In this document: positions 1 to 10,581 of the stretch, piece after piece
Position numbering within the stretch: the stretch's first letter is position 1
Layout: every line of letters starts with the position of its first letter
Source of the DNA: a virus
UHGV virus genome: UHGV-0266139
Length of the DNA stretch: 10,581 nucleotides
Direction: 5' to 3' (one strand)
Notes under the pieces: generated by a model
Databases searched by the model: none
Seen by the model: the letters and a program-made list of their open reading frames with translations, nothing else
What the model was told of the DNA's origin: nothing
Translations under genes and position numbers: made by a program

Positions 1-49
1 AACGCGTTATAAATAAATGTATGAAAGATGTTGAGCTGGTCAACGTCTA

Positions 50-86
50 CGGGGGAGAACATCCCCCGCTAACCTTTTTCTTATTT
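50..86 (+). terminator. Weak intrinsic terminator candidate: stem CGGGGGA (50-56) / TCCCCCG (62-68), loop GAACA, T-rich tract from 75
   Basis: Perfect 7-bp inverted repeat seen directly; the T tract starts 6 nt after the stem, which is suboptimal. It lies inside a reading frame that is open from the window edge into ORF 99..200. Confidence 0.3.
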
Positions 87-98
87 GAGGATTTACCT

Positions 99-200
99 AT
101 GGTTGAATTTTTGATTTATCTGGCTGTAGGGCTAACTATCGTATATTCACTGGCACATATTGGCGTTTCTGCTGTGTGTAACGCTTTCAAGTATCATTAA
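99..200 (+). CDS. Small hydrophobic peptide, 33 aa (MVEFLIYLAVGLTIVYSLAHIGVSAVCNAFKYH), one predicted transmembrane helix
   Basis: ATG at 99 preceded by GAGGA (88-92) at 6-nt spacing; hydrophobic core. The same frame is open upstream to the window start (ATG at 21), so the true start is uncertain. Below the size of the supplied ORF track. Confidence 0.35.
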   Translation: MVEFLIYLAVGLTIVYSLAHIGVSAVCNAFKYH

Positions 201-219
201 TTAAATCGATGAATTGAAC
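200..219. repeat. 20-bp perfect direct repeat ATTAAATCGATGAATTGAAC, copy 1 (intergenic, between the two small ORFs)
   Basis: Identical 20-mer found again at 1145-1164; hand comparison. Confidence 0.6.
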
Positions 220-253
220 TATAGATGATGGTCGTTTTCAAAGAGGATTATCT

Positions 254-427
254 ATGGATCTTTTTGTCTATTTCGCTACTCTGCTGTTTTTGACTATCGT
301 CGCTGGCATTAAATTGATTTTTATATCGCTGGTGGTGTTTTTCAAATTTCTAATCGGTACGCCTTACGGCTGGGTATGTTTAATCCTGTTTATTCTTTTT
401 AGTTGCTGTAAAAAGGATACTAAATAA
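254..427 (+). CDS. Small membrane protein, 57 aa (MDLFVYFATLLFLTIVAGIKLIFISLVVFFKFLIGTPYGWVCLILFILFSCCKKDTK), two predicted transmembrane helices, charged C-terminus
   Basis: ATG at 254 preceded by AGAGGA (242-247) at 6-nt spacing; two hydrophobic stretches and KKDTK tail; followed downstream by two plus-strand terminators. Confidence 0.45.
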   Translation: MDLFVYFATLLFLTIVAGIKLIFISLVVFFKFLIGTPYGWVCLILFILFSCCKKDTK

Positions 428-585
428 TAGTGTAATCTGCCTTTTCTCCTTATGGTTATTAACAGGGGATCTTCTTTGAGGATTCCCGATTAAAAGCCAT
501 AAAACACACTCCAGTACAGTGTTTTCATAGTCAGTGATCTATACAACATAAAAACATAACAAGTATAGATTGAGTGTTAATCCTC

Positions 586-611
586 CCGCCTCGAAAGAGG
601 CGGTTATTTTT
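586..611 (+). terminator. Intrinsic terminator: stem CCGCCTC (586-592) / GAGGCGG (597-603), GAAA loop, TTATTTTT tail
   Basis: Perfect 7-bp GC-rich stem with tetraloop immediately followed by a T tract on the plus strand. Confidence 0.6.
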
Positions 612-687
612 CTGGCTTTAAAGAATAATGTAGCATTATGTTCATTATAACCTCATCTTTGTTGTGCAAACCTAACCTAAACTTACT

Positions 688-713
688 AGGGACTCTTCGG
701 AGTCCCTTTTTTT
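688..713 (+). terminator. Intrinsic terminator, possibly bidirectional: stem AGGGACTC (688-695) / GAGTCCCT (700-707), TTCG loop, T7 run to 713
   Basis: Perfect 8-bp stem with TTCG loop and seven T on the plus strand; an A run on the other side means it may also end the minus-strand gene 720..1061. Confidence 0.6.
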
Positions 714-719
714 ATTGTC

Positions 720-1061
720 TTAAGCAACAAGACGCAATCCTTTGTTTTTCATCTTCTGTATTTTCTTTTCTTTAACGGACTTTTCTCTATACCCTTTCAA
801 TTCTTCAAGTAGTTTAATCTGTTCCCTCAATGATTTCTTGTAGTCTTCTTGCATGGCTTTAAATCCTTCACCAAGTTTTACGTAATTATCATGTAAGGAT
901 TTGTACTTTTCCATTAGCTCATTGCATTCTTTCTCTTTAATCGAAAGTTTAATGGTCAAAAATTCACACTCAGCATTAGTCTGTTTTAGCGTTTCAGAAA
1001 GAATCATGTTTTTCTCTTTCAGAGTTTTACGGGACAGTGCTTTTTCGTTTAAAGTTGCCAT
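720..1061 (-). CDS. Hypothetical coiled-coil protein, 113 aa (MATLNEKALSRK...KGLRLVA)
   Basis: Track ORF 720..1130 begins at a TTG; the ATG at 1061 has GGAG 8 nt upstream on the minus strand. K/E-rich heptad-like sequence. No family recognised. Confidence 0.6.
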   Translation of the reverse strand: MATLNEKALSRKTLKEKNMILSETLKQTNAECEFLTIKLSIKEKECNELMEKYKSLHDNYVKLGEGFKAMQEDYKKSLREQIKLLEELKGYREKSVKEKKIQKMKNKGLRLVA

Positions 1062-1086
1062 AGTAGGGTCTCCAATTAAATTAAAA

Positions 1087-2049
1087 TTAAGCTGCTTTGC
1101 GAACGTCGAACACATTTTCGAACGCATCAAAAACTTTAACTGTCATTAAATCGATGAATTGAACGGAAGAACCATTTTTCTTAATCAGGTATTTGTTCCA
1201 TTCTGCAACGTCTGCAACAGTACGCTTTTCGTTAAGCAGAATCCAAAGAGCTTGTTTGTCTTTAGATTCAACCGCTTGAGTAAAGAAGTCTTTAGATTCA
1301 ACTTCCTGATCTGCTTCAACTGCCACAGGAGCAACTTCTTTAGCTTTCAGTTCTTCAATCTCAGCTTTCTGTGCTTCGATGATCTGGTCTTTTTCTTTCA
1401 GTGCAGCTTTCAGTTCTGCGATCTGTGCTTCCAGTGCAGAGAAACGATCTTCAACAGCAACCGGAGAAACAGCATTCACCTGTGCTTCCAGTTCCAGGAA
1501 TGCTTCGCAAGATTCAATGCGTTCTTTCTCTTCACCTTCATAAGCAACCAGTTCTACAACTTCTTTTTCGGTAGCGTGGCTGTTAAAGAATACAGCAAAG
1601 TAAGGATTGCCGGATTTAGTGAAGTTCAGTTTAGCTTTTCCGGTAACTTCTTTACGACGACCAAAGGTAATGTTGCAATCAGCGGTATCCTGAAAATCCA
1701 TGTTAGGAGCGGAAACGATAGCAGTATCACCAGCAATAACCAGGTGGAACAGTTCAGAAGAGTTCTTAACGGTGAAAGTAACGATGTGGTCTACTGCAAC
1801 GTCTTTAGCAGGTTTAACGCGGTCGATTGCTTTACGAACGCCGTTAGACAGTTTACCGTCAACACCAAAGCCAGCCGCGATCAGTGCTTCACGATGTGCT
1901 TTAAAGCCAGCGAAAGCGGATTTCTGCTGCGCAAAGGAAACATGAGCAACAACTTTCGGCTGAATCTTCTTGTTTGCTTCGGTGCCAAATTTGATAACTG
2001 ATTTAGCGTTGGTTACTTCGTTAGTGAAAAAGTTAGCGGAAAATAACAT
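1087..2049 (-). CDS. Hypothetical protein, 320 aa: N-terminal domain, central A/E/K-rich coiled-coil region with an internal short repeat, C-terminal domain
   Basis: ATG at 2049 with AGGAG 8 nt upstream; long ORF whose antisense frame is F/C-rich junk. Internal DNA repeat TCTTTAGATTCAAC at about 1257-1270 and 1289-1302 (encoding VESKD twice). No family recognised. Confidence 0.7.
   Translation of the reverse strand: MLFSANFFTNEVTNAKSVIKFGTEANKKIQPKVVAHVSFAQQKSAFAGFKAHREALIAAGFGVDGKLSNGVRKAIDRVKPAKDVAVDHIVTFTVKNSSELFHLVIAGDTAIVSAPNMDFQDTADCNITFGRRKEVTGKAKLNFTKSGNPYFAVFFNSHATEKEVVELVAYEGEEKERIESCEAFLELEAQVNAVSPVAVEDRFSALEAQIAELKAALKEKDQIIEAQKAEIEELKAKEVAPVAVEADQEVESKDFFTQAVESKDKQALWILLNEKRTVADVAEWNKYLIKKNGSSVQFIDLMTVKVFDAFENVFDVRKAA
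1145..1164. repeat. 20-bp perfect direct repeat ATTAAATCGATGAATTGAAC, copy 2 (inside the 3-prime end of the 320-aa gene, encoding VQFIDLM on the minus strand)
   Basis: Identical to 200-219; hand comparison. Confidence 0.6.
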
Positions 2050-2093
2050 TATAAATACTCCTGTGGAAAGTTAGTTTTAATTGTTCATTTCAA

Positions 2094-2131
2094 GCCTCCT
2101 TTGCTGCAACAAGGGAGGCTTTTTCTTTTTT
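2094..2131 (+). terminator. Plus-strand intrinsic terminator candidate: stem GCCTCC (2094-2099) / GGAGGC (2114-2119), TTTTTCTTTTTT tail (2120-2131)
   Basis: GC stem followed directly by a 12-nt T-rich tract on the plus strand. No plus-strand gene lies upstream of it (the flanking genes are minus-strand), so its target transcript is unknown. Confidence 0.45.
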
Positions 2132-2163
2132 AAAGCCATCATATAATTCTCAGTGAAAGTGGA

Positions 2164-2343
2164 TTAACAAACTTGAACGTTAATCTTTACCTGAATTTCG
2201 TATTTCTTCATTAGCTTGTAGAATCCGCTTCTATCAATTCCTTCCTTCTTAAAGAAGTTTTCCCCGCCTCGCTCAGTGTCGCTGTAAAAGCGTTTAGCAA
2301 TATCAACAATCATTTCACGAGTGAACTTAACAGGTCTAGCCAT
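2164..2343 (-). CDS. Small HTH DNA-binding protein, 59 aa (MARPVKFTREMIVDIAKRFYSDTERGGENFFKKEGIDRSGFYKLMKKYEIQVKINVQVC); first gene of the leftward operon
   Basis: Track ORF starts at a GTG (2358); the ATG at 2343 has GAGGAA 7 nt upstream. RP..F...DIA...Y....GI..FYK.MKK pattern resembles Hin/resolvase-type or Mor/C-type HTH domains (from memory). Paralogous to 5629..5856. Confidence 0.55.
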   Translation of the reverse strand: MARPVKFTREMIVDIAKRFYSDTERGGENFFKKEGIDRSGFYKLMKKYEIQVKINVQVC

Positions 2344-2443
2344 CAGTCGATTCCTCACATGTGGATTAATAATTTCTTAAAAAAGAGCATTTCGCTCTGA
2401 ACACTTGTATTTATAAAATGATTTTCAGAAAACCCTGTAAAAC

Positions 2444-2463
2444 CACTGTATATCCGATCAGTG
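2444..2463. promoter_or_regulatory. Operator-like inverted repeat CACTG-N10-CAGTG (CACTGTATATCCGATCAGTG)
   Basis: Palindromic arms seen directly; near-identical second copy at 2529-2548; lies in the control region upstream of the leftward operon. Confidence 0.35.
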
Positions 2464-2528
2464 GGAGCACGAATTGCTAAAGAGAAGATTAATTATTAAT
2501 CAATTCGTACAATATTCAACCGAAAAAG

Positions 2529-2548
2529 CACTGTATATCTAACCAGTG
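2529..2548. promoter_or_regulatory. Operator-like inverted repeat CACTG-N10-CAGTG (CACTGTATATCTAACCAGTG), second copy
   Basis: 17 of 20 positions identical to 2444-2463, same dyad arms, 85 bp away. Confidence 0.35.
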
Positions 2549-2700
2549 CTGTATGAATTAGCAGTGAATCAGGAGATTTTCAGAAGTGAACAATCATTTC
2601 ACACATGTATTTATAACGTGGAAATTCTTGCTTATCATCTATATAGGGACTGTTTAGAAAATTTCAACCCCCACCAGTGAGAAAAAGTATAAAATAATCC

Positions 2701-2729
2701 TTGACAGTTGTCAATACACTTGACCTAAG
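2701..2729. promoter_or_regulatory. TTGACA-N13-TTGACCTAAG motif (contains palindrome TTGACAGTTGTCAA), copy 1
   Basis: Same arrangement TTGACA-N13-TTGACCTAGA recurs at 4318-4346; -35-like hexamers but no good -10 at 17 bp, so promoter versus operator is undecided. Confidence 0.3.
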
Positions 2730-2912
2730 CGAGAAATGGCTATCAAATTTTTTGTTTGAAAATGGTAGATCAGGATTATCAACCTTTATAACCTATTATG
2801 GCACGGAGACCTTTTGACAATTCTTTTTAAATCATTAACTTACGCCACTTTTTGGTGATTTTTTGATTAAATAATATACAATAATTTTCTATCAAAATAT
2901 TTGATGGGAATT

Positions 2913-3105
2913 GCCCCTGAAATTCTGAATTTTTGCCCCCGAATAAAATCCCCAAGATTCCACTATCCAATTTTTGCCCCTGAAACCTACTATTTTTGCC
3001 CCTGAAATTCTGGGAAACAGTGATTTTGCCCCTCATTTTTGCCCCTGAAATGACAATAATTGCCCCTGAAAATCTAATTTTTGCCCCTGAAATTTGCCCC
3101 CGAAA
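2913..3105. repeat. Array of about 9 same-orientation direct repeats, consensus TTTTTGCCCC(T/C)GAAA, mostly 21-22 bp apart (iteron-like)
   Basis: GCCCC cores start at about 2913, 2935, 2976, 2998, 3028, 3041, 3062, 3083, 3096 (hand-counted); a further copy at 5446-5455 sits inside a terminator stem. Confidence 0.7.
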
Positions 3106-3246
3106 GGGATTGGTGAGAAAAACCATTTATAAAACATTAACTTAGCGAGGGCAAAAGCGGGGAATCGGGCGTGCATAGATATTATATAACACATTCGCTA
3201 CGCTCATGTGTAAAACCAAAAACAACAAATAACCAAAAAGATATTA

Positions 3247-3265
3247 GGAGGGCGTAGCCCGACTG
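3247..3265. repeat. About 20-bp direct repeat GGAGGGCGTAGCCCGACTG, copy 1
   Basis: Matches 3678-3697 (GGAGGGCTTTAGCCCGACTG) with one indel; the two copies bracket the CTAG-rich module. Confidence 0.5.
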
Positions 3266-3285
3266 CGCGAAGCGCCAACCAATTG

Positions 3286-3530
3286 CTTCTAGTAACAACT
3301 AATTTAAACTAGATGATACTAGATGGTCTTAGAAGGAATTAACTAGTTTGCTCGCTCGCTTCGCTCACTCTCAAACGTCTGCGACGCCACTGCGTGGCAT
3401 CGAGAATCACTTCTGAAAGGATTTTCTCGAAAGGGATTTAAACTAGTTACTAACTGATTCTAGAAAGATAGTAATAATCACTTTGAAGATAATAGTAGTT
3501 AACTGGTTACTAGATGATTCTAGATCACTT
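3286..3530. repeat. CTAG-rich repeat module: units at 3308-3326, 3441-3467 and 3501-3527 (AACT(A/G)GTTACTA..TGATTCTAGA) flanking a GC-rich core at about 3348-3410
   Basis: Eight CTAG tetramers within about 235 bp against a handful across the rest of the window (by eye, not exhaustively counted); units 3441-3467 and 3501-3527 match at 21 of 27 positions; the core contains GCTC direct repeats and a GCCAC/GTGGC dyad. Confidence 0.6.
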
Positions 3531-3553
3531 TAATGATCATGAAAGGTATTGGT

Positions 3554-3582
3554 ATCCCTTCGGGATTGCAACCTTCGGTTGC
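3554..3582 (+). other. Two adjacent short hairpins: ATCCC/GGGAT (3554-3566) and GCAACC/GGTTGC (3568-3582), both with TTC(G) loops
   Basis: Inverted repeats seen directly; no clean T run follows, so RNA structure or processing site rather than a canonical terminator. Confidence 0.3.
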
Positions 3583-3677
3583 TAAATTGCTTCCTGATTA
3601 TTATTTCTCCAAAAGAAAGATTCTTATATTCTAAAGATACTTCTTCGTTTTGATGATGATTTAATCAAATCTATGAA

Positions 3678-3697
3678 GGAGGGCTTTAGCCCGACTG
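3678..3697. repeat. About 20-bp direct repeat GGAGGGCTTTAGCCCGACTG, copy 2
   Basis: See 3247-3265. Confidence 0.5.
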
Positions 3698-3786
3698 AAT
3701 ACAATCACCTTCTAAAAGAGATAAATTTTTCTCGTTATAAATAATAGTGAACTTACTTGATTCACTTTCTTTTAGAGGATACCACT

Positions 3787-4245
3787 ATGATCAATACTAA
3801 AACTCCTTTCGTACTTCTGGGTCTGGACTCTGAAAACTATGGTAACTTCCATATGCTAGAAGTTTTCGCTAATCGTGGTTATAACATCATTCGTCATTCC
3901 GAAGACTCCAACTACTCAACTGCTTTCTACGCTTTAAAACGAAATGGTCGTCCTACTGTGATCATCGACTGTTTTACTGATGAGGGTCGTCTTCAATACA
4001 ACGATATTCCAGCAATTATTGTTCGTGATGATCTGCCGTTTCAAGTCCGTGAGTATGACGTTGATTTAGGCTCTTACTACTCTTTAGCGGAACTTGACCA
4101 GATTATGGCTGATTACGGTAAACAACCCGCTCAGGAAGCCCCAGAACAAGATGAAGAAGATGAGGAAGACGAAGACTACGCTCCAATCTGTTTCTCTTCT
4201 CAGAATGGCTTCTACGGTTACGATGAAGGCTTAGATATGCTGTAA
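3787..4245 (+). CDS. Highly acidic protein, 152 aa (about 31 D/E against about 10 K/R), with poly-acidic stretch EQDEEDEEDED near the C-terminus; function unknown, candidate DNA mimic or other host-interaction protein
   Basis: Track ORF starts at TTG 3757; the ATG at 3787 has AGAGGA 7 nt upstream. Codon choice looks like a highly expressed enterobacterial gene (CTG, CGT, GGT, TTC, AAC, TAC), judged by eye. First gene downstream of the repeat-rich region. Confidence 0.7.
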   Translation: MINTKTPFVLLGLDSENYGNFHMLEVFANRGYNIIRHSEDSNYSTAFYALKRNGRPTVIIDCFTDEGRLQYNDIPAIIVRDDLPFQVREYDVDLGSYYSLAELDQIMADYGKQPAQEAPEQDEEDEEDEDYAPICFSSQNGFYGYDEGLDML

Positions 4246-4280
4246 GTTAGGTCAACCCTTTGGTGTCTTGTCAAGGGGTA

Positions 4281-4309
4281 TTGGCAAAAATTTATGACTT
4301 TTTTATGAT
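4281..4309 (+). promoter_or_regulatory. Near-consensus sigma70-type promoter: TTGGCA (4281-4286), 17-bp spacer, TATGAT (4304-4309)
   Basis: 5 of 6 matches in each hexamer with optimal spacing; sits between the acidic gene and the 48-aa ORF. Assumes an enterobacterial-type host. Confidence 0.45.
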
Positions 4310-4317
4310 TATCGCAC

Positions 4318-4346
4318 TTGACAAATTTTAACCCATTTGACCTAGA
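4318..4346. promoter_or_regulatory. TTGACA-N13-TTGACCTAGA motif, copy 2
   Basis: Same architecture as 2701-2729; lies just downstream of the promoter call and upstream of the 48-aa ORF. Confidence 0.3.
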
Positions 4347-4367
4347 TTTGTAAAGAGGATGTTAATT

Positions 4368-4514
4368 ATGAACACTACTAAGAAAGTTGATGGACGTAAA
4401 AACCCGAACCGCAAACCGTGGACCCCAAACCTGAATTTCTCAATGGTTGACTTCCATGAACGCCAGCGTCGCATTCAAGAAGAAATTGATCGCGCGATTG
4501 CTGAATCTAAATGA
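4368..4514 (+). CDS. Small basic protein, 48 aa (MNTTKKVDGRKNPNRKPWTPNLNFSMVDFHERQRRIQEEIDRAIAESK)
   Basis: ATG at 4368 with AGAGGA about 10 nt upstream, downstream of the promoter call; basic N-terminus, helical-looking C-terminus. Below the size of the supplied ORF track. Confidence 0.45.
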   Translation: MNTTKKVDGRKNPNRKPWTPNLNFSMVDFHERQRRIQEEIDRAIAESK

Positions 4515-4541
4515 GATAAAAATTTCTTTATAAATAAAATT

Positions 4542-4563
4542 GTTCCGGTTGAGATGCCGGAAC
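4542..4563 (+). other. Hairpin GTTCCGG / CCGGAAC with 8-nt loop immediately upstream of the Rha-like gene ribosome-binding region
   Basis: Perfect 7-bp inverted repeat; followed by TAGGAGGA, not a T run, so not a terminator; possible leader structure. Confidence 0.3.
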
Positions 4564-4603
4564 TAGGAGGATCATCACTAAACCGTTTAAGGGGGATTTT
4601 ACT

Positions 4604-5437
4604 ATGAATACTGTTACTACTATGAATACTGCTGTTAAAACTGCTTCTGTGTCTCTGGTTGTTGATAACACCAAACCGCTGACCATGTCTTCTCGTCAGA
4701 TTGCTGAATTTACCGGAAAAGAACACCACAAAGTTAAAGTTGATATAACTAAGATGTTGAATGCTCTAGGTTATGAAGATCACGCGAAGTTTCGCGTCAT
4801 CTATTTTGACCAATACGGACGCGAACAAAACGAATATCAACTAGACGAAGAAATGACTCTGACTCTTGTCACTGGTTACGATGTTAAGCGTCGAATGGTT
4901 GTTATTCAGGAATGGAAACGACTGAAAGAAGAAAATGAAAAACTGCGTTCTCAGCAAGTCAACCCATACGCAAACATGACTAAGCTCGATTGGATTCGTG
5001 AGGCAATGGAATTGGAAGCCGCAAACGAACAACTGATTCAAGAAAAAGAACAATTAGTTGATCTTCATATCCGTAAAGCTATTGATGCACACAGTCTTAG
5101 CCGCTTATTAGGCGAAAAACGAGGCTCTACGAAGGTACAAATGATTCTGAAAGGTTTATGTGCTGCTGGTGTTCTTGAGCGTCGTCTGGATGCTTCTGGT
5201 AAGCCTAAAGGCTATGATCTGCTTCCTCCTGGCTATATGTTCGCTCGTATGTCGGCACACGGTCAGATCGAGTTCACTGCTGATGCTATCCCGCATCTCG
5301 TAAAACTCGGATTGCTTGAAGAAGAAAAGGCCGCAACTTTGAAATTGCCACAGCCGAACAACTCACGAGCAATTGTCAATAACACTGCTTTGCTGATTCG
5401 TCAGAATGTTGGATCGCTAGAACACTTCGGACTGTAA
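4604..5437 (+). CDS. Rha-family phage regulatory protein (N-terminal Rha-like domain), 277 aa, with coiled-coil middle and C-terminal domain of unknown function
   Basis: ATG at 4604 with GGGGG 8 nt upstream. N-terminal SSRQIAEFTGKEHHKV...TLTLVTGYDVKRRMVVIQEW matches my recollection of the Rha domain pattern (VAE.FGK.H..V..DI, L.VMGFTG), not a database hit. A 13-bp tandem duplication ACTATGAATACTG (4601-4613, 4619-4631) gives MNTVTTMNTAV. Confidence 0.75.
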   Translation: MNTVTTMNTAVKTASVSLVVDNTKPLTMSSRQIAEFTGKEHHKVKVDITKMLNALGYEDHAKFRVIYFDQYGREQNEYQLDEEMTLTLVTGYDVKRRMVVIQEWKRLKEENEKLRSQQVNPYANMTKLDWIREAMELEAANEQLIQEKEQLVDLHIRKAIDAHSLSRLLGEKRGSTKVQMILKGLCAAGVLERRLDASGKPKGYDLLPPGYMFARMSAHGQIEFTADAIPHLVKLGLLEEEKAATLKLPQPNNSRAIVNNTALLIRQNVGSLEHFGL

Positions 5438-5445
5438 TAATTTTT

Positions 5446-5470
5446 GCCCCTGAATTTCAGGGGCTTTTTT
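5446..5470 (+). terminator. Strong intrinsic terminator: GCCCCTG (5446-5452) / CAGGGGC (5458-5464), T6 run (5465-5470); built on a copy of the GCCCCTGAA repeat
   Basis: Perfect GC-rich stem followed directly by TTTTTT, 9 nt after the Rha-like stop codon. Confidence 0.75.
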
Positions 5471-5473
5471 GTA

Positions 5474-5509
5474 TCTGTAGATGCGCTGAACTTTAAGCGC
5501 ATCTACAGA
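5474..5509. promoter_or_regulatory. Perfect 13-bp inverted repeat TCTGTAGATGCGC-N10-GCGCATCTACAGA, followed by palindrome GATGCATC (5514-5521)
   Basis: Seen directly; lies in the intergenic gap between the Rha terminator and the minus-strand cassette; candidate protein-binding site or second hairpin. Confidence 0.4.
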
Positions 5510-5587
5510 TTTGGATGCATCTATAGATCAGTCAAGATTTGGACTCAGCTTCGAGATGAGCGCAGTTTTGCGCCGATTGTTTTACAT

Positions 5588-5613
5588 ACAAAAAAGCCAC
5601 TCCGAAGAGTGGC
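5588..5613 (-). terminator. Minus-strand intrinsic terminator: GCCACTC (5596-5602) / GAGTGGC (5607-5613) with a run of T on the minus strand (plus-strand A run 5588-5595)
   Basis: On the minus strand the stem has a UUCG loop and is followed by UUUUUUGU; 16 nt past the stop codon of gene 5629..5856. Confidence 0.65.
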
Positions 5614-5628
5614 AAAGAGAATCAAAAC

Positions 5629-5856
5629 TCAAAAACCTGTTGCTTCTACGATCTGACCATCACCGATCTGAACATAGAATTTAATGTCTAACTTCTTCAT
5701 ATTCTTATAGAATTGGGCGATTGAGATCCCATGTTCACTAAGAATCTGTTCTTTCGCTTCCTTACCACGATCCGCTGTATAATAAGCGTAGGCAATATCA
5801 GCCATCTGTTCAGCGTTAAAACGGGCAGGGCGACCGCGAGTAGCTTTAGTAGTCAT
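5629..5856 (-). CDS. Small HTH DNA-binding protein, 75 aa (MTTKATRGRPARFNAEQMADIAYAYY...GISIAQFYKNMKKLDIK...), paralog of 2164..2343
   Basis: Track ORF starts at GTG 5889; ATGs at 5862 and 5856, the latter 9 nt from GGAG. RGRPARF then helix-turn-helix pattern resembles the Hin/resolvase-type DNA-binding domain (GRPR arm plus HTH), from memory. The start could be 5862. Confidence 0.55.
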   Translation of the reverse strand: MTTKATRGRPARFNAEQMADIAYAYYTADRGKEAKEQILSEHGISIAQFYKNMKKLDIKFYVQIGDGQIVEATGF

Positions 5857-5891
5857 AGTCATTTTCTCCAAATTAAAGTGAATGTTCACCT

Positions 5892-6494
5892 TTATTTAGA
5901 GGACTTACATTTTATCGGAAAAAGTTCTCCATCGTCAACCGACATAAAGAACTCTGCCTTAATCCCGTACTTCTTCAACCGTGAATAGTATGTACCCCGA
6001 CTAATATCAACCTTGCGAAGCACTTCGAAGAACTCTTTAGGATTCCTGTAATAATGGCTATAACGCACGTTAGCGAGTTCAACGAATAGTTCCCTTGTAT
6101 CACCATAGCCTTTCTTGAAAGCCTCGTTACGATAGCGTGTAATAGCGTGATTCGATCTCTTCTGTTTAAGCACTTCCCTGATCGGCTTCCACTGCAACCG
6201 ATAGATTGGACCGCCATCCACTCGATAATAACGCTTGATATCAAAATCAAACCATTCACGGACTCGCTGAAACTCTGTCTGTGATGTTCGGTGCTTCTTA
6301 AAGAAGTTATGAATATCGGTATACCCATGATCGCGATACAACTCGATTAAAATCTCTTTCGCTTCCTCACGACTAAAGCCAGATGTTGTGTAGTCGGTTT
6401 TTAAATGCTTATGCTTAACGGGTAAACGATATTCATGATCGGTACAAGACAAGGCTAATTCTAATTCATCTCTTTCTTGCTGATTAATTAGCAT
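5892..6494 (-). CDS. Basic 200-aa protein rich in R/K/Y with a C-terminal HTH module related to the two small HTH proteins; candidate DNA-binding regulator
   Basis: ATG at 6494 with AGGAGG about 4 nt upstream; C-terminal ...[26 protein letters not shown] aligns without gaps to the 75-aa protein (IS, Y, KK, IK). No nuclease motif (GIY-YIG, HNH, LAGLIDADG) seen. Confidence 0.65.
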
Positions 6495-6581
6495 ACACCC
6501 TCCTTAAATCTTAATACCCGTATTTATCAAAATATCAACAATTTAATAAATACCTTCATATTTCGTAATGAGGGTAATTAC

Positions 6582-8489
6582 ATGAAACTAATTTCTAATA
6601 AGGCCAAATTAAAAAAGATTCTCAGAAATGCAGCCAAATATATTACGCCACCGCCTAAACTCCTTCCATCGGAATGGTGCGAAGCGAATATGGTGCTGGT
6701 AGATGGTCCTCAAGCTGGGGATAAAGTTAAACTGCTGTCATTCCAGAAAGGCATGATTGATGCTCCTTTCCTTGAGAACAAGAAAAAGTATGTTCTGATG
6801 ACCAGTGCGCAGATCGGAAAGACTACCATCCTGAACGGCATCCTGTTTAACCAGATGGCTAACGATCCATGCAATATGATTATCGGACAATCAACCGCTA
6901 AAGAAATGTCTCAATATCTCGCTGGTAAGATCCGACCGTCTATCGAAGCATGTGATGCATTAAAAGACGTGGTTACAGACAAGAATGATCGCAATTCGGT
7001 TAATAACAATAACCAGCTACAGCTCAAAACGAATCACTTCCTGTACATGGTATCGCTTACCAGCCCATCAACCCTACGTGGTAAGACCGCAAAGGTTGGA
7101 TTACTTGACGAAATTGATGCTGCCACAGCCTCAGAAGAAGGTGATCCGGTGGCACTGGCTGCTAACCGTTTAACTACCTTTGGAGATGAAGGTCGATTAG
7201 TCGTATCCAGTACCCCGACCAGTAAGCTGGGAAGCATTAACCAGCAATGGTTATCAAGCGATATGCGTATGTTTTTTGTTCCGTGTCCTCATTGCGGGGA
7301 ACACCAGGTGATCGAGTGGGAAAACGTTCAATTTGAATGGCGTAACATCGATGGTAAGAACTTACCCGATCCTGATACCGCTCGTTATATTTGCCCCCAC
7401 TGTAAGAACGCATGGACAGAAGGGGAACGAATCAGGGCAGTAGCGCAAGGCGAGTGGAGAGCAACCCGTGAAAGTGAAGTAGCAGGATTCTGGATCAGTC
7501 GTCTGTATTCACCTTTCAGCACGATTCGCGCTTGTGTGGTTGATTTTAGTCATGCGTGGCAATCCTTTGATTTACAATCCTTTTTTAACACCGTGTTAGG
7601 CAAGGTATACGATGATCAGGACACGGCAGTAGAAGCAAATGAACTGGAACAACTCAAAACAGATGTTTCTATCGAGAATATCCCTGATGACGTGATTTTC
7701 TTGTGCTCAGGAATTGACCAGCAATTGGACCGCGCAGAATCTACCATCTTAGGTGTAGCGAAAGATAAGGTTTACATTCTGGATCACCGTAGCTTTTACG
7801 ATCATAACTGTGAACGATATGAATCCCCTGTATGGGATCGTCTGATTAACTTCAAGAAAACCAAATTCTATAACGTTAATGGTGAACGTGTGCCAATGCT
7901 CGCCAGCTTCCTTGATACATCGAACGGTCGATTCACTCAAGCCGGATACCGTATTTGCGGCAAGTGGAAGAACCTACACGCTATCAAAGGTAGTTCATCT
8001 GGTAATGCTCCAGTGATTCCGGTTAAACCTACCCGCACAGGTGGTCATGAATTGCTTATGCTGGGTGTTAACGTTGGTAAATCCGCTGTTCGTGAAATGC
8101 TGGTTAGAAACCTGAAAGATAATCCTCATATTGGCTTAGAAATATCAGAAACCGTTCCTGATGATTATCTCGATCAGCTTTTGAGTGAATCCATCAAGCG
8201 TACTACTACTGGCGTGCGTTGGGTGAAAAATCCAGGTAGTACCCGAAACGAGGCTCTCGACTGTCTGGTTTATAGCTATGCTGCTTCTCGCTACGTCCTT
8301 TCAAAAATGTCATGGGATAAACTCATTGCAATGAAAGACAGCTTAAACCGTGTTGTCGAAGAATCCGTAGAAGCTCCTAAATCGCAATCTGACGAGCAAA
8401 TAGAAGAAACTAAGCCAATCACACGACCACAACGTCAAAACATCGCCAGACGTCCAAATAGAGGCCGTAGCTGGGTAACATCGTTCTAA
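6582..8489 (+). CDS. terL: Terminase large subunit, lambda gpA type, 635 aa
   Basis: ATG with GAGGG 7 nt upstream. Walker A-like SAQIGKTT, acidic VGLLDEID, zinc-ribbon CPHCGEHQ...CPHC, and blocks [32 protein letters not shown] match lambda gpA (ACPHCGEEQ, YSPFTTW, AGIDSQLDR, RNEALDCFVYALAA) from memory; size matches (lambda 641 aa). Confidence 0.9.
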
Positions 8490-9066: not shown

Positions 9067-10509
9067 ATGTTTAATCTTTTTCGACGCAAAAAGGCGGTAG
9101 AAACTCCAGTTAAAACTAATCACCGCCAGCAACAACCAAAAATTTTCATCGACAAACAAGTAGAAAAATTCCAGAAAGATTTGTCTAAGCGTTCTTTGGG
9201 CTTGGTCGGTGATCGCATTGATGGATCGCTTCAACAAGATACTATCACAGGAACCTTCAATAAGGCTCTCAAATCGAACGGTAAGCGCCTTTATGATCAG
9301 GGTCGTACTCTGGCCTTAAACACTTCCGTAGGCAGTCGCTACACGCAATACATCACCGATATGGTGGTTGGTACTGGCCTAGATCCGAAGCCGTCAGTTG
9401 TTAAATCAAATGGAAAACTTGATAGCGCACTGAATAAGCAGATCGAGAATGCTTTCTGGAAGTGGGCGCAGAATGCTAAACGCTTCTCTCGTAACGGTCG
9501 CTTTAACTTCCGTGAACTGCTGGTAATGGCTGAACGTGAGCGCGTTATGGGTGGTGAGTGCTTCATAGTTTTAACCAAAGAAAACAATGAGTTAAATGTT
9601 TCTATCCTGTCTGCTGATAAGTGCGACTGGACGCTCAACCGTGAAGTAAGCAAAGAACGTGCTATCTATCAGGGGATAGAGTATGACGTAGAAACAATGC
9701 GCCCTGTTGCATACTGGTTTCGTAAAATCAACCTACTGACTCAGACTTACACAGGTGATAACTATCGCGTAGATGCTTCGCAAGTATGCCATTATTATCA
9801 ACCACTTGCGGCTGAATCTCTGCGTGGTGTGACTGACTTCCTGCCAGTGATCAAGGATATTGCGCATCAAGACGCATTCCGCGAAACCGCGATCATCCAG
9901 AAACGTATTGCAGCTAGCTCTATGGGCTTTATCGAACGTCCGAAAGATTCTGGTGACGATTTTGATACTGGTGAAGAGGATGAACAATATCAAGCGCCGG
10001 AAGTAGTACAGGATTTTGCACCGGGTACTATTCAGGAATTGCCGGAAGGGGCAACGATCAAGAGCATCCAGGCGACGCAAAGCGGTGATGATTTCAATTC
10101 CTTCAATGATGCGATGTTTACTAGCGTATCAATGGGCTTAGGCGTGTTTAAACAGGGCTTGACTGGTGATACTTCCCAGATCAACTACTCAGCCGCGCGT
10201 TTCGGTGAACTACTTCAACGTAACCGTGTTAAATCGCTACAAAACAAATTGATTGAAACAGTGGTATTGCCAATTTTTGAAGCATATCTACGCCATTATT
10301 CCGCGCGTGGTATTGTTCCGATTCGTATTACTGCAATCCCGCATATTATCGATAACACTACTATTATTCGTCCGCGTTTTGAGTCCGTCGATGTTATTAA
10401 AGATGTGAACGCTGATATTGCTTTAATTGATAACGGACTTAGAATCTATCCCAAAAGGATTTTATTCCAGACAATGATGCTGCAAGCAAAATGCAGCATC
10501 GCCTCGTAG
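9067..10509 (+). CDS. Portal protein, lambda gpB type, 480 aa
   Basis: ATG with AAGGGG 6 nt upstream. Blocks FWKWAQNAKRF...NFRELLVMAERERVMGGECFIV and GLGV...YSAAR parallel lambda gpB (AAWKEFAED...TFTMMIREGV...GELFV; GLGVSYEQLSRNYAQMSYSTAR) from memory; correct synteny after terminase and gpW. Confidence 0.85.
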   Translation: MFNLFRRKKAVETPVKTNHRQQQPKIFIDKQVEKFQKDLSKRSLGLVGDRIDGSLQQDTITGTFNKALKSNGKRLYDQGRTLALNTSVGSRYTQYITDMVVGTGLDPKPSVVKSNGKLDSALNKQIENAFWKWAQNAKRFSRNGRFNFRELLVMAERERVMGGECFIVLTKENNELNVSILSADKCDWTLNREVSKERAIYQGIEYDVETMRPVAYWFRKINLLTQTYTGDNYRVDASQVCHYYQPLAAESLRGVTDFLPVIKDIAHQDAFRETAIIQKRIAASSMGFIERPKDSGDDFDTGEEDEQYQAPEVVQDFAPGTIQELPEGATIKSIQATQSGDDFNSFNDAMFTSVSMGLGVFKQGLTGDTSQINYSAARFGELLQRNRVKSLQNKLIETVVLPIFEAYLRHYSARGIVPIRITAIPHIIDNTTIIRPRFESVDVIKDVNADIALIDNGLRIYPKRILFQTMMLQAKCSIAS

Positions 10510-10581
10510 TTTTCGACTTTCTTCTCCCATCGCGTCAGTATGCGGCGAAAGCGATTCATCCAGCTATGTGTTCTTTCCACA
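10491..10581 (+). CDS. 5-prime end of the next gene (MQHRLVVFDFLLPSRQYAAK...), overlapping the portal stop by 19 nt and running off the window; by synteny possibly a head protease or scaffold gene
   Basis: ATG at 10491 in a different frame from the portal, open to the window end; the 19-nt overlap mirrors the lambda B/C overlap. No clear Shine-Dalgarno and no sequence match to lambda gpC, so weak. Confidence 0.3.
   Translation, partial: MQHRLVVFDFLLPSRQYAAKAIHPAMCSFH

Follow-up and report, generated by a model that had tools for sequence, protein, structure and literature searches.

The 10,581-nucleotide (nt) stretch of DNA analysed here from virus genome UHGV-0266139, hereafter the window, raises a question of function: what do two minus-strand genes, encoding proteins of 200 and 75 amino acids (aa) that we call p200 and p75, do between a Rha-like gene and the gene for the large terminase subunit, TerL? 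A preliminary description made from the sequence alone offered two answers for this cassette, either a moron-like insertion or a pair of helix-turn-helix (HTH) late activators transcribed divergently from the promoter that they control, and it observed that lambda-type phages carry their small terminase (TerS) gene at this place. The cassette is core to its prophage lineage, and p200 and p75 most likely regulate the phage's -35-less TAAATAC promoters, themselves putative. We tentatively favor a role as divergent HTH regulators of the late promoter that combine activation with autorepression, with a probability of roughly one in three.

The window is the left arm of a prophage lineage of about 35 kb from Escherichia coli, Salmonella and Proteus. 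Synteny was compared in every related locus from these hosts that could be read, 43 in all. p200 lies on the strand opposite TerL, at a gap of 85-90 nt, in all 43, and p75 is next to p200 in 42, whereas the cassette's other neighbour varies (Rha, a 72-aa gene or a DUF2158 gene). The ratio dN/dS was 0.09-0.25 for p200 and 0.04-0.25 for p75, indicating purifying selection; because of these low ratios, and because homologues form 45 (p200) and 23 (p75) clusters, we consider both genes real. The homologues come from E. coli/Shigella, Salmonella and Proteus only and are all named "hypothetical". The G+C fraction over 5550-6450 (0.40-0.44) is like that on the Rha side (0.40-0.47) and in TerL (0.42-0.49), and only the AT-rich gap between p200 and TerL falls to 0.33-0.35. 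With such conservation, selection and composition, the idea of a moron-like insertion had to be abandoned; asked whether related phages lack the cassette between these genes, the comparison found it present, in the same order, in all 43 loci.

The proposed genes themselves are both there, and so are the cassette's own strong ribosome-binding sites (Shine-Dalgarno sequences read directly), its own terminator and the strong terminator closing the Rha gene, the last two recovered by a terminator scan (Table 1). The start of p75 at 5856 is right, its homologues having 73-75 aa and GGAG (5869-5866) standing 9 nt before that ATG. Since the spacer between p200 and p75 is without a terminator, the two genes form one operon. 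Where the cassette terminator stands, relatives have a different hairpin.

Identity profiles of related prophages showed sharp mosaic joints at ~5845-5860, ~6480-6540 and ~6600-6650, and p200 and p75 each reassort as single-gene modules. Against locus L011, for example, TerL is 98% identical but the adjoining p200 only 54%; the TerL alleles next to a single p200 allele (87-97% identical) are 57-59% identical in some loci and 95-99% in others, and this p200 allele also occurs with either p75 allele and with every type of p64, p150 and p320, three other proteins of the phage. Of all non-coding DNA, the conserved gap alone accompanies p200 in every case, and this is the main argument for p200 acting there.

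In its monomer model (AlphaFold, AF2, from the family alignment; predicted local distance difference test score, pLDDT, 74), p200 opens with an N-terminal helix, after which a unit of three helices and a β-hairpin occurs twice, joined by a disordered linker, so that HTH + β-hairpin modules at residues ~36-105 and ~122-196 stand in tandem. The p75 model (AlphaFold, family alignment, pLDDT 80) is a single such module, and its helix 'EHGISIAQ.YK' is invariant in the E. coli, Salmonella and Proteus members. By BLASTP and in a joint alignment, each phage has four homologous copies of the module, namely p75, the two halves of p200, and p64, whose BLASTP E-values were 8e-10 to p75 and 6e-07 to p200. 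The three-helix HTH fold was seen in the models of both cassette proteins. The best fold matches were Tc3 transposase, CENP-B 1-129, Myb R2R3, the Hin/resolvase HTH_7 and the IS3 HTH_Tnp_1; remote profile matches were confined to proteins carrying homeodomain-like HTH domains (the HTH_7/HTH_23/HTH_28/HTH_Tnp_1 group; E 1e-11 to 1e-4). No Pfam family matched p200 or p75 at E≤0.1, so that no HTH gathering score was reached, and the p200/p75/p64 module family had no match in Pfam, PHROGs, NCBIfam or PADLOC. On these models, p200 and p75 join the Hin/IS3-type HTH group as new members specific to this lineage, and their predicted fold suggests that they bind DNA sequence-specifically. Among known regulators, the Mor family (PF08765) gave no match to either protein at E≤0.1; Ogr/Delta (PF04606) likewise gave no Pfam match, and its Cys4 motif is excluded since p75 has no cysteine and p200 has two. 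Neither HTH_3/Cro-C1 nor peptidase S24 domains were found by Pfam in either protein. Sigma region 2 and region 4 domains (sigma-70/ECF/gp55-like) were absent too.

A consensus sigma-70 scan of the 87-nt gap across which the cassette and TerL diverge (6495-6581) found no promoter. The gap does hold an inverted pair, GTATTTAT ... ATAAATAC, nearly invariant in the alignment across lineages, which makes up two -10-like, -35-less promoter-like elements set back to back. On the cassette side, ATAAATAC is invariant in five aligned lineages, and one-base variants (ATAAATAT) occur in a few further loci. Motif enrichment gave 5 sites for the gap-type element vs 0.6 expected; TATAAATA or ATAAATAC occurs 8 times in the window vs <1 expected, always between genes, with 7/8 pointing at the downstream gene. 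The preliminary description had reasoned that TerL, cut off by the Rha terminator, needs its own promoter in this gap. A consensus sigma-70 promoter is not what the gap offers; a conserved promoter-like element with a recurring late leader is, as a putative start signal, which lends support to that reasoning.

That leader comprises an RNA hairpin which pairs the TerL Shine-Dalgarno (6570-6574) with sequence beginning inside the TAAATAC motif. The same architecture, TAAATAC, anti-Shine-Dalgarno (anti-SD), loop, Shine-Dalgarno, recurs in four other places, and the leader heads three late units of the phage, that of TerL and two more in locus L002. The 13-mer TAAATACYYTCAT occurred at late-leader sites only within the family loci and in 0/80 unrelated GpA loci. 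Paralogous copies of the hairpin differ in sequence. Its pairing is conserved (92% of cells paired vs 44-54% in slid controls), although covariation was not significant. The TerL-side element and its leader are found again downstream of terminators at two more late units, and directly behind the Rha terminator in the distant relative L047, as would be expected of a dedicated late promoter class. Judging from these sequences, it would be one whose discriminator doubles as an anti-SD, leaving read-through RNA translationally silent; the leader hairpin may silence such transcripts by fold-back inhibition.

The regulator reading fits these findings best because HTH folds coincide with back-to-back gap elements of which the TerL-side one recurs at other late units. 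Also counted in its favor are the divergence of the cassette from TerL in all 43 loci despite its variable other neighbour, a separate TerS candidate and the lack of co-variation between the cassette and the iterons, both described below. The first target would be the back-to-back element pair in the gap. p200, possibly with p75, would sit on its own promoter and leader, DNA that seen from TerL falls at -35 to -65 of the divergent promoter; once bound, it would stop cassette transcription and aid RNA polymerase at the weak late promoter, following a LysR-type logic. With the two -10-like elements only 0-34 nt apart, a single template should carry transcription of either the cassette or the late operon but not both, and p200 and p75 would also serve the other late units with a TAAATAC leader. 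Thus, the earlier proposal of HTH late activators divergent from the promoter that they control is supported in part, by the folds, the gap elements and the recurring leader; to Mor/C and Ogr, whose arrangements it had compared, there is no sequence relationship.

Several observations weigh against this reading. In sequence, p200 and p75 resemble neither Mor/C nor Ogr, nor any other regulator family, and p75 is missing in locus L012. p200 alleles (40-68% identical) do not co-vary with the gap sequence, and no binding site was recognised there; nor do the upstream regions of TerS, TerL and the cassette hold an obvious shared activator site beyond TAAATA, whose intergenic enrichment is partly trivial, reflecting AT-richness and stop codons. 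The order in L047 is TerS - [p320 <- p64 <- 66aa <- p75 <- p200] | iterons | p150 -> Rha -> TerL, so that the cassette heads the leftward early p64-p320 operon, ~3 kb from TerL. There, TerL directly follows the Rha terminator and is preceded by CTAAATAC and a stronger hairpin pairing its Shine-Dalgarno; adjacency of the cassette to TerL is therefore not required, and the late element is independent of it. Repressor genes, too, typically face leftward, have a promoter and terminator of their own, and share overlapping promoters with a divergent neighbour. DNA binding, the binding site, TAAATAC as a promoter and an activating effect are all inferred. The p200 homologue of L047 (7554-8354) has an in-frame stop between 7979 and 7998. 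A genome-contig scan with the TerL profile yielded only relatives of ≤33% identity, and so no information on intermediate relatives. To judge from the gene orders, the cassette is a relocatable leftward module.

A possible alternative, though a doubtful one, is that p200 and p75 are repressors, made in the lysogen, that bind the overlapping promoter pair and silence the late operon. They might bind other TAAATA promoters as well, in L047-type genomes silencing the whole rightward lytic operon, and cassette transcription, running antisense between Rha and TerL, would in addition keep read-through from reaching the terminase gene. Supporting this possibility, the cassette opposes all lytic genes and has its own promoter and terminator, a polymerase cannot hold both -10 elements at their observed spacing, and the cassette's element (TATAAATAC or GATAAATAC) is nearer consensus than TerL's AATAAATAC. 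Relatedly, p200 of L047 has the classic repressor position, first of a leftward operon and divergent from p150-Rha-TerL; the annotation of the whole prophage includes no CI-like repressor; and the Rha protein beside the cassette matches PHROG anti-repressor families. On the other hand, no operator-like repeats co-vary with the highly divergent p200 alleles, and the flanks of the early promoters do not differ from lineage to lineage. In an immunity or replicon determinant, allele and site should co-vary; p320 and its iterons do so, and the cassette does not.

These iterons bear on a further alternative. At least eight TTGCCCCTGAA iterons, spaced 11/21-22 nt, lie at 2907-3105 in a 1.4-kb control region, and in relatives they differ by lineage (ATCGCAAACAC, GCTAGGGAT, TAGTGTAGG, TCACGGACA). 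Only p320, of 320 aa (1087-2049, minus strand), co-varies with iteron type; p200, p75 and p64 do not. On this pattern, p320 is probably an iteron-binding initiator or immunity protein, and the cassette proteins were rejected as iteron binders. It is nevertheless conceivable, if unlikely, that p200 and p75 are accessory DNA-binding proteins of the p64-p320/iteron module, acting at an origin or in immunity and relocated beside TerL in the E. coli/Salmonella/Proteus clade. In L047, p200-p75-66aa-p64-p320 form a single leftward operon, with its promoter right next to the iteron array, and p64 is paralogous to the cassette modules. Besides the exclusive pairing of p320 with the iterons, it tells against such a role that CTAG/ACTAGATGAT sites follow the p320-A module and not p200, and that in all 43 main-clade loci the cassette stands apart with its own promoter and terminator.

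The CTAG tetramers number 8 in 250 nt at 3289-3523 (vs 0.9 expected), including ACTAGATGAT direct repeats at 10-nt spacing; because they co-occur with the p320-A/iteron-A module in relatives and do not track the p200 allele, the ACTAGATGAT repeats were rejected as a p200 site. The stem of the Rha terminator (5446-5464) reads as a palindrome of GCCCCTGAA, a word that it shares with the iterons. LexA-box-like sites (CTGTAT-N7-CAG) at 2446-2461, 2531-2546 and 2549-2564 lie between or beside two promoter-like motifs upstream of the p64-p320 operon, and the window has 6 such sites vs 0.7 expected. L008 and L010 have similar boxes, and L004, L007, L011, L012 and L047 have none, and SOS control would therefore be lineage-specific. 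LexA control of the cassette was dismissed, as no boxes are near it.

A bolder proposal, which we regard as very improbable, makes p200, with its two modules and flexible linker, a promoter-specificity factor, sigma-like or sigma-appropriating, that would read the phage's own 8-bp, -35-less TATAAATA/TAAATAC promoters. If true, a 35-kb temperate enterobacterial phage would have a T4-late-like transcription programme, and its leader hairpins would restrict translation to transcripts begun at those promoters.

The case that the HTH proteins mark the packaging site, as a small terminase or in cos recognition, is weaker still and hard to credit. As the preliminary description noted, the cassette has the position of lambda gpNu1, immediately upstream of a GpA-type TerL; moreover, TerS proteins often have an N-terminal HTH of similar broad type, and Sf6_terminase and Phage_terminase were side matches in the remote HTH arrays. 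The position thus stands, but replacement of TerS does not, given a Nu1-like TerS candidate ~5.6 kb upstream. This 183-aa gene (L002:18438-18989), on the same strand as TerL at the prophage's extreme left, ends ~12 nt before base 1 of the window, so that the whole early/regulatory region (window 1-6581) splits TerS from TerL. It matches phrog_57 "terminase small subunit" (E 9e-17), its orthologues have sub-threshold Phage_Nu1 matches, and the winged-helix motif of lambda Nu1 can be aligned to its N-terminus (E 3e-5, with a manually entered Nu1 sequence). Neither p200 nor p75 matched the TerS families of Pfam or PHROG at E≤0.1, both monomer models show HTH modules and hairpins only, with no oligomerisation core seen at the monomer level, and unlike gpNu1 the cassette lies on the strand opposite TerL. 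None of 80 unrelated GpA-TerL loci had this HTH module within 10 kb, and in L047 the cassette is away from TerL. For these reasons the cassette was rejected as a small terminase. The better candidate for cos or attP is a GC-rich block, conserved and lying 130-300 nt upstream of TerS. Directly downstream of TerS, two small open reading frames (ORFs), 21-200 (59 aa) and 254-427 (57 aa), encode hydrophobic products with no family match and are unannotated in RefSeq relatives.

A moron, defence or anti-defence passenger without a role in the phage's own cycle would explain a self-contained unit with a promoter-like element, strong ribosome-binding site and terminator that reassorts independently, but is scarcely credible for genes that are universal in the lineage, under purifying selection and like their flanks in G+C, that have no PADLOC match and whose domains have a paralogue in a further core gene of this phage.

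Table 1. Positions of the cassette, its signals, neighbouring genes and copies of the late leader (window coordinates unless a locus is named).
Feature	Position	Strand	Remarks
p64, fourth module copy	2164..2343	minus	59 aa from ATG; first gene of leftward p64-p320 operon
Rha-gene intrinsic terminator	5446..5470	plus	convergent to cassette terminator; terminator scan; stem 5446-5464 + T6
Cassette intrinsic terminator GCCACTC-TTCG-GAGTGGC + T6	5590..5613	minus	terminator scan; stem 5613-5596
p75 gene	5629..5856	minus	75 aa; ORF list and sequence
p200/p75 intercistronic spacer	5857..5891	minus	35 nt; Shine-Dalgarno GGAG 5869-5866; without terminator; also a mosaic joint (identity break at ~5845-5860)
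p200 gene	5892..6494	minus	200 aa; ORF list and sequence
p200 Shine-Dalgarno AAGGAGGG	6498..6505	minus	3 nt before ATG at 6494; kept in relatives
Cassette-side -10-like, -35-less promoter element GATAAATAC	6520..6528	minus	25 nt upstream of p200 ATG
Spacer between the two -10-like motifs	6529..6544	.	-2 to 34 nt and sequence variable between lineages
TerL-side late-type, -35-less promoter-like element AATAAATAC	6545..6553	plus	28 nt upstream of TerL ATG
Inverted repeat/RNA hairpin UACCUUCAU-N8-AUGAGGGUA	6551..6576	plus	-10.4 kcal/mol
Large terminase TerL, lambda-type	6582..8489	plus	first gene of late operon; GpA ATPase and nuclease domains
Late leader copy	L002 ~31430-31456		after capsid terminator
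Late leader copy	L002 47743-47781		before lysis genes; likewise in DEC5A
Late leader copy	L012 ~6012-5975		before 164-aa gene
Late leader copy	L047 ~4595-4557		before TerL; stem sequence different
Late leader	L130 48754		at head of one late unit

Within the gap, an IHF-consensus match, TATCAACAATTTA, lies at 6533-6545 in the spacer and is common to the lineages with an 18-nt spacer; the window has 3 matches to the IHF pattern vs 1.0 expected, which is not significant. The early units have a different promoter-like consensus, ttctcgtTATAAATA(a/c)tAGTG, which is longer, -35-less, absent from the gap elements and flanked by identical sequence in all lineages. Its sites, at 8-15, 2408-2415 (minus), 2608-2615 (minus), 3736-3743 and 4529-4536, are kept in E. 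coli, Salmonella and Proteus relatives, and the presumed early transcripts open with short hairpins such as GTGAAC...GTTCAC. The early-promoter 8-mer is identical to the T4 late-promoter consensus TATAAATA. The inverted repeat TGCGYA-N16-TACGCA around the promoter-like motif of TerS was rejected as a p75 site, as L012 has the repeat without p75 and L007 the reverse. Inside the 3' end of p200, a sigma-70-like match (TTGACG-18-TAAAAT, 10/12; 5909-5938, minus strand) could drive p75 alone; it is perhaps a chance match, the whole region holding fewer such matches than shuffled sequence.

Between the convergent terminators, ~120 nt at 5471-5590 contain a palindrome with 18-nt arms (5473-5510) and a second dyad (5506-5541); this stretch is missing in the closest relative, GN4741, and one Salmonella relative shares part of it. 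A cos site within the intergenic region 5438-5628 was ruled out, the palindrome and the ~120 nt around it being absent from the closest relative and not conserved. On the other side of the gap, TerL matches the Pfam GpA ATPase (E 9e-57) and nuclease (E 8e-44) domains and phrog_15 (E 1e-137), and Pfam and PHROG searches placed a 164-aa head-tail joining protein and then a lambda-family portal after it on the plus strand. Similarity to all related prophages ends at 10446, leaving a portal ORF of 480 aa vs 503 aa in relatives, and a minus-strand ORF in the remaining 10446-10581 has a weak match to a DDE-transposase C-terminus (E 0.03). These features suggest an insertion sequence (IS) in the portal gene, because of which this prophage copy is probably defective. 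Rfam had no match in the window.

Of 5,426 complete E. coli genomes, 70 carry the prophage. In strain GN4741 it is inserted in ycdX, with a large serine recombinase at the far end, and in O55:H7 DEC5A it is inserted in hicB; the family thus integrates at two or more sites, one within ycdX, used in most loci, and one within hicB, used in DEC5A and L128. The nearest TerL of a cultured phage, that of DCP80, is 42.7% identical. A tblastn search of cultured phages with p200 gave no match, the window DNA gave just one chance stretch of 56-64 nt against them, and a literature search for the ycdX prophage returned nothing relevant. The lineage is thus one without a cultured or characterised relative, its entire regulatory apparatus unannotated. 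What p200 and p75 bind would define how the phage times its late genes, and would give a handle on an unusual layout in which the entire early region splits TerS from TerL, promoters are -35-less, and hairpins in late leaders sequester ribosome-binding sites. No principle is overturned, since HTH regulators adjoining the operon under their control are ordinary.

Known systems resemble the cassette in part. Mor and C of phage Mu are also small phage HTH proteins, and they switch on -35-less middle and late promoters. They are dimers with one C-terminal HTH, transcribed in the direction of the lytic genes, whereas here a tandem-HTH protein and a single-module protein are transcribed divergently and have no sequence match to them. 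In lambda cI/PRM-PR and TP901-1 CI/MOR, an HTH regulator is divergent from lytic genes and both promoters lie in a short region. The cassette of L047 is placed exactly so, but that of the main clade faces the structural (late) operon, and the cassette lacks HTH_3 and peptidase S24 domains and recognised operator repeats. In IS10 fold-back inhibition, the ribosome-binding site pairs with sequence at or upstream of the transcription start, so that only read-through transcripts are silenced; the phage leader hairpin likewise pairs the ribosome-binding site with sequence at or upstream of the presumed start, without significant covariation. T4 late promoters consist of TATAAATA with no -35 and are served by gp55/gp33, of which no homologue was found here; the phage likewise has 8-bp TATAAATA/TAAATAC elements upstream of its transcription units. 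LysR-type regulators are divergent from their target operons, with overlapping promoters, and one bound protein can repress its own gene and activate the neighbour; the likeness is one of architecture only, the cassette proteins having an unrelated fold and no effector domain. Bipartite homeodomain-like proteins (Tc3, CENP-B, Myb R2R3) are likewise built of two three-helix modules and a linker, and by analogy the two modules of p200 suggest recognition of two adjacent major grooves.

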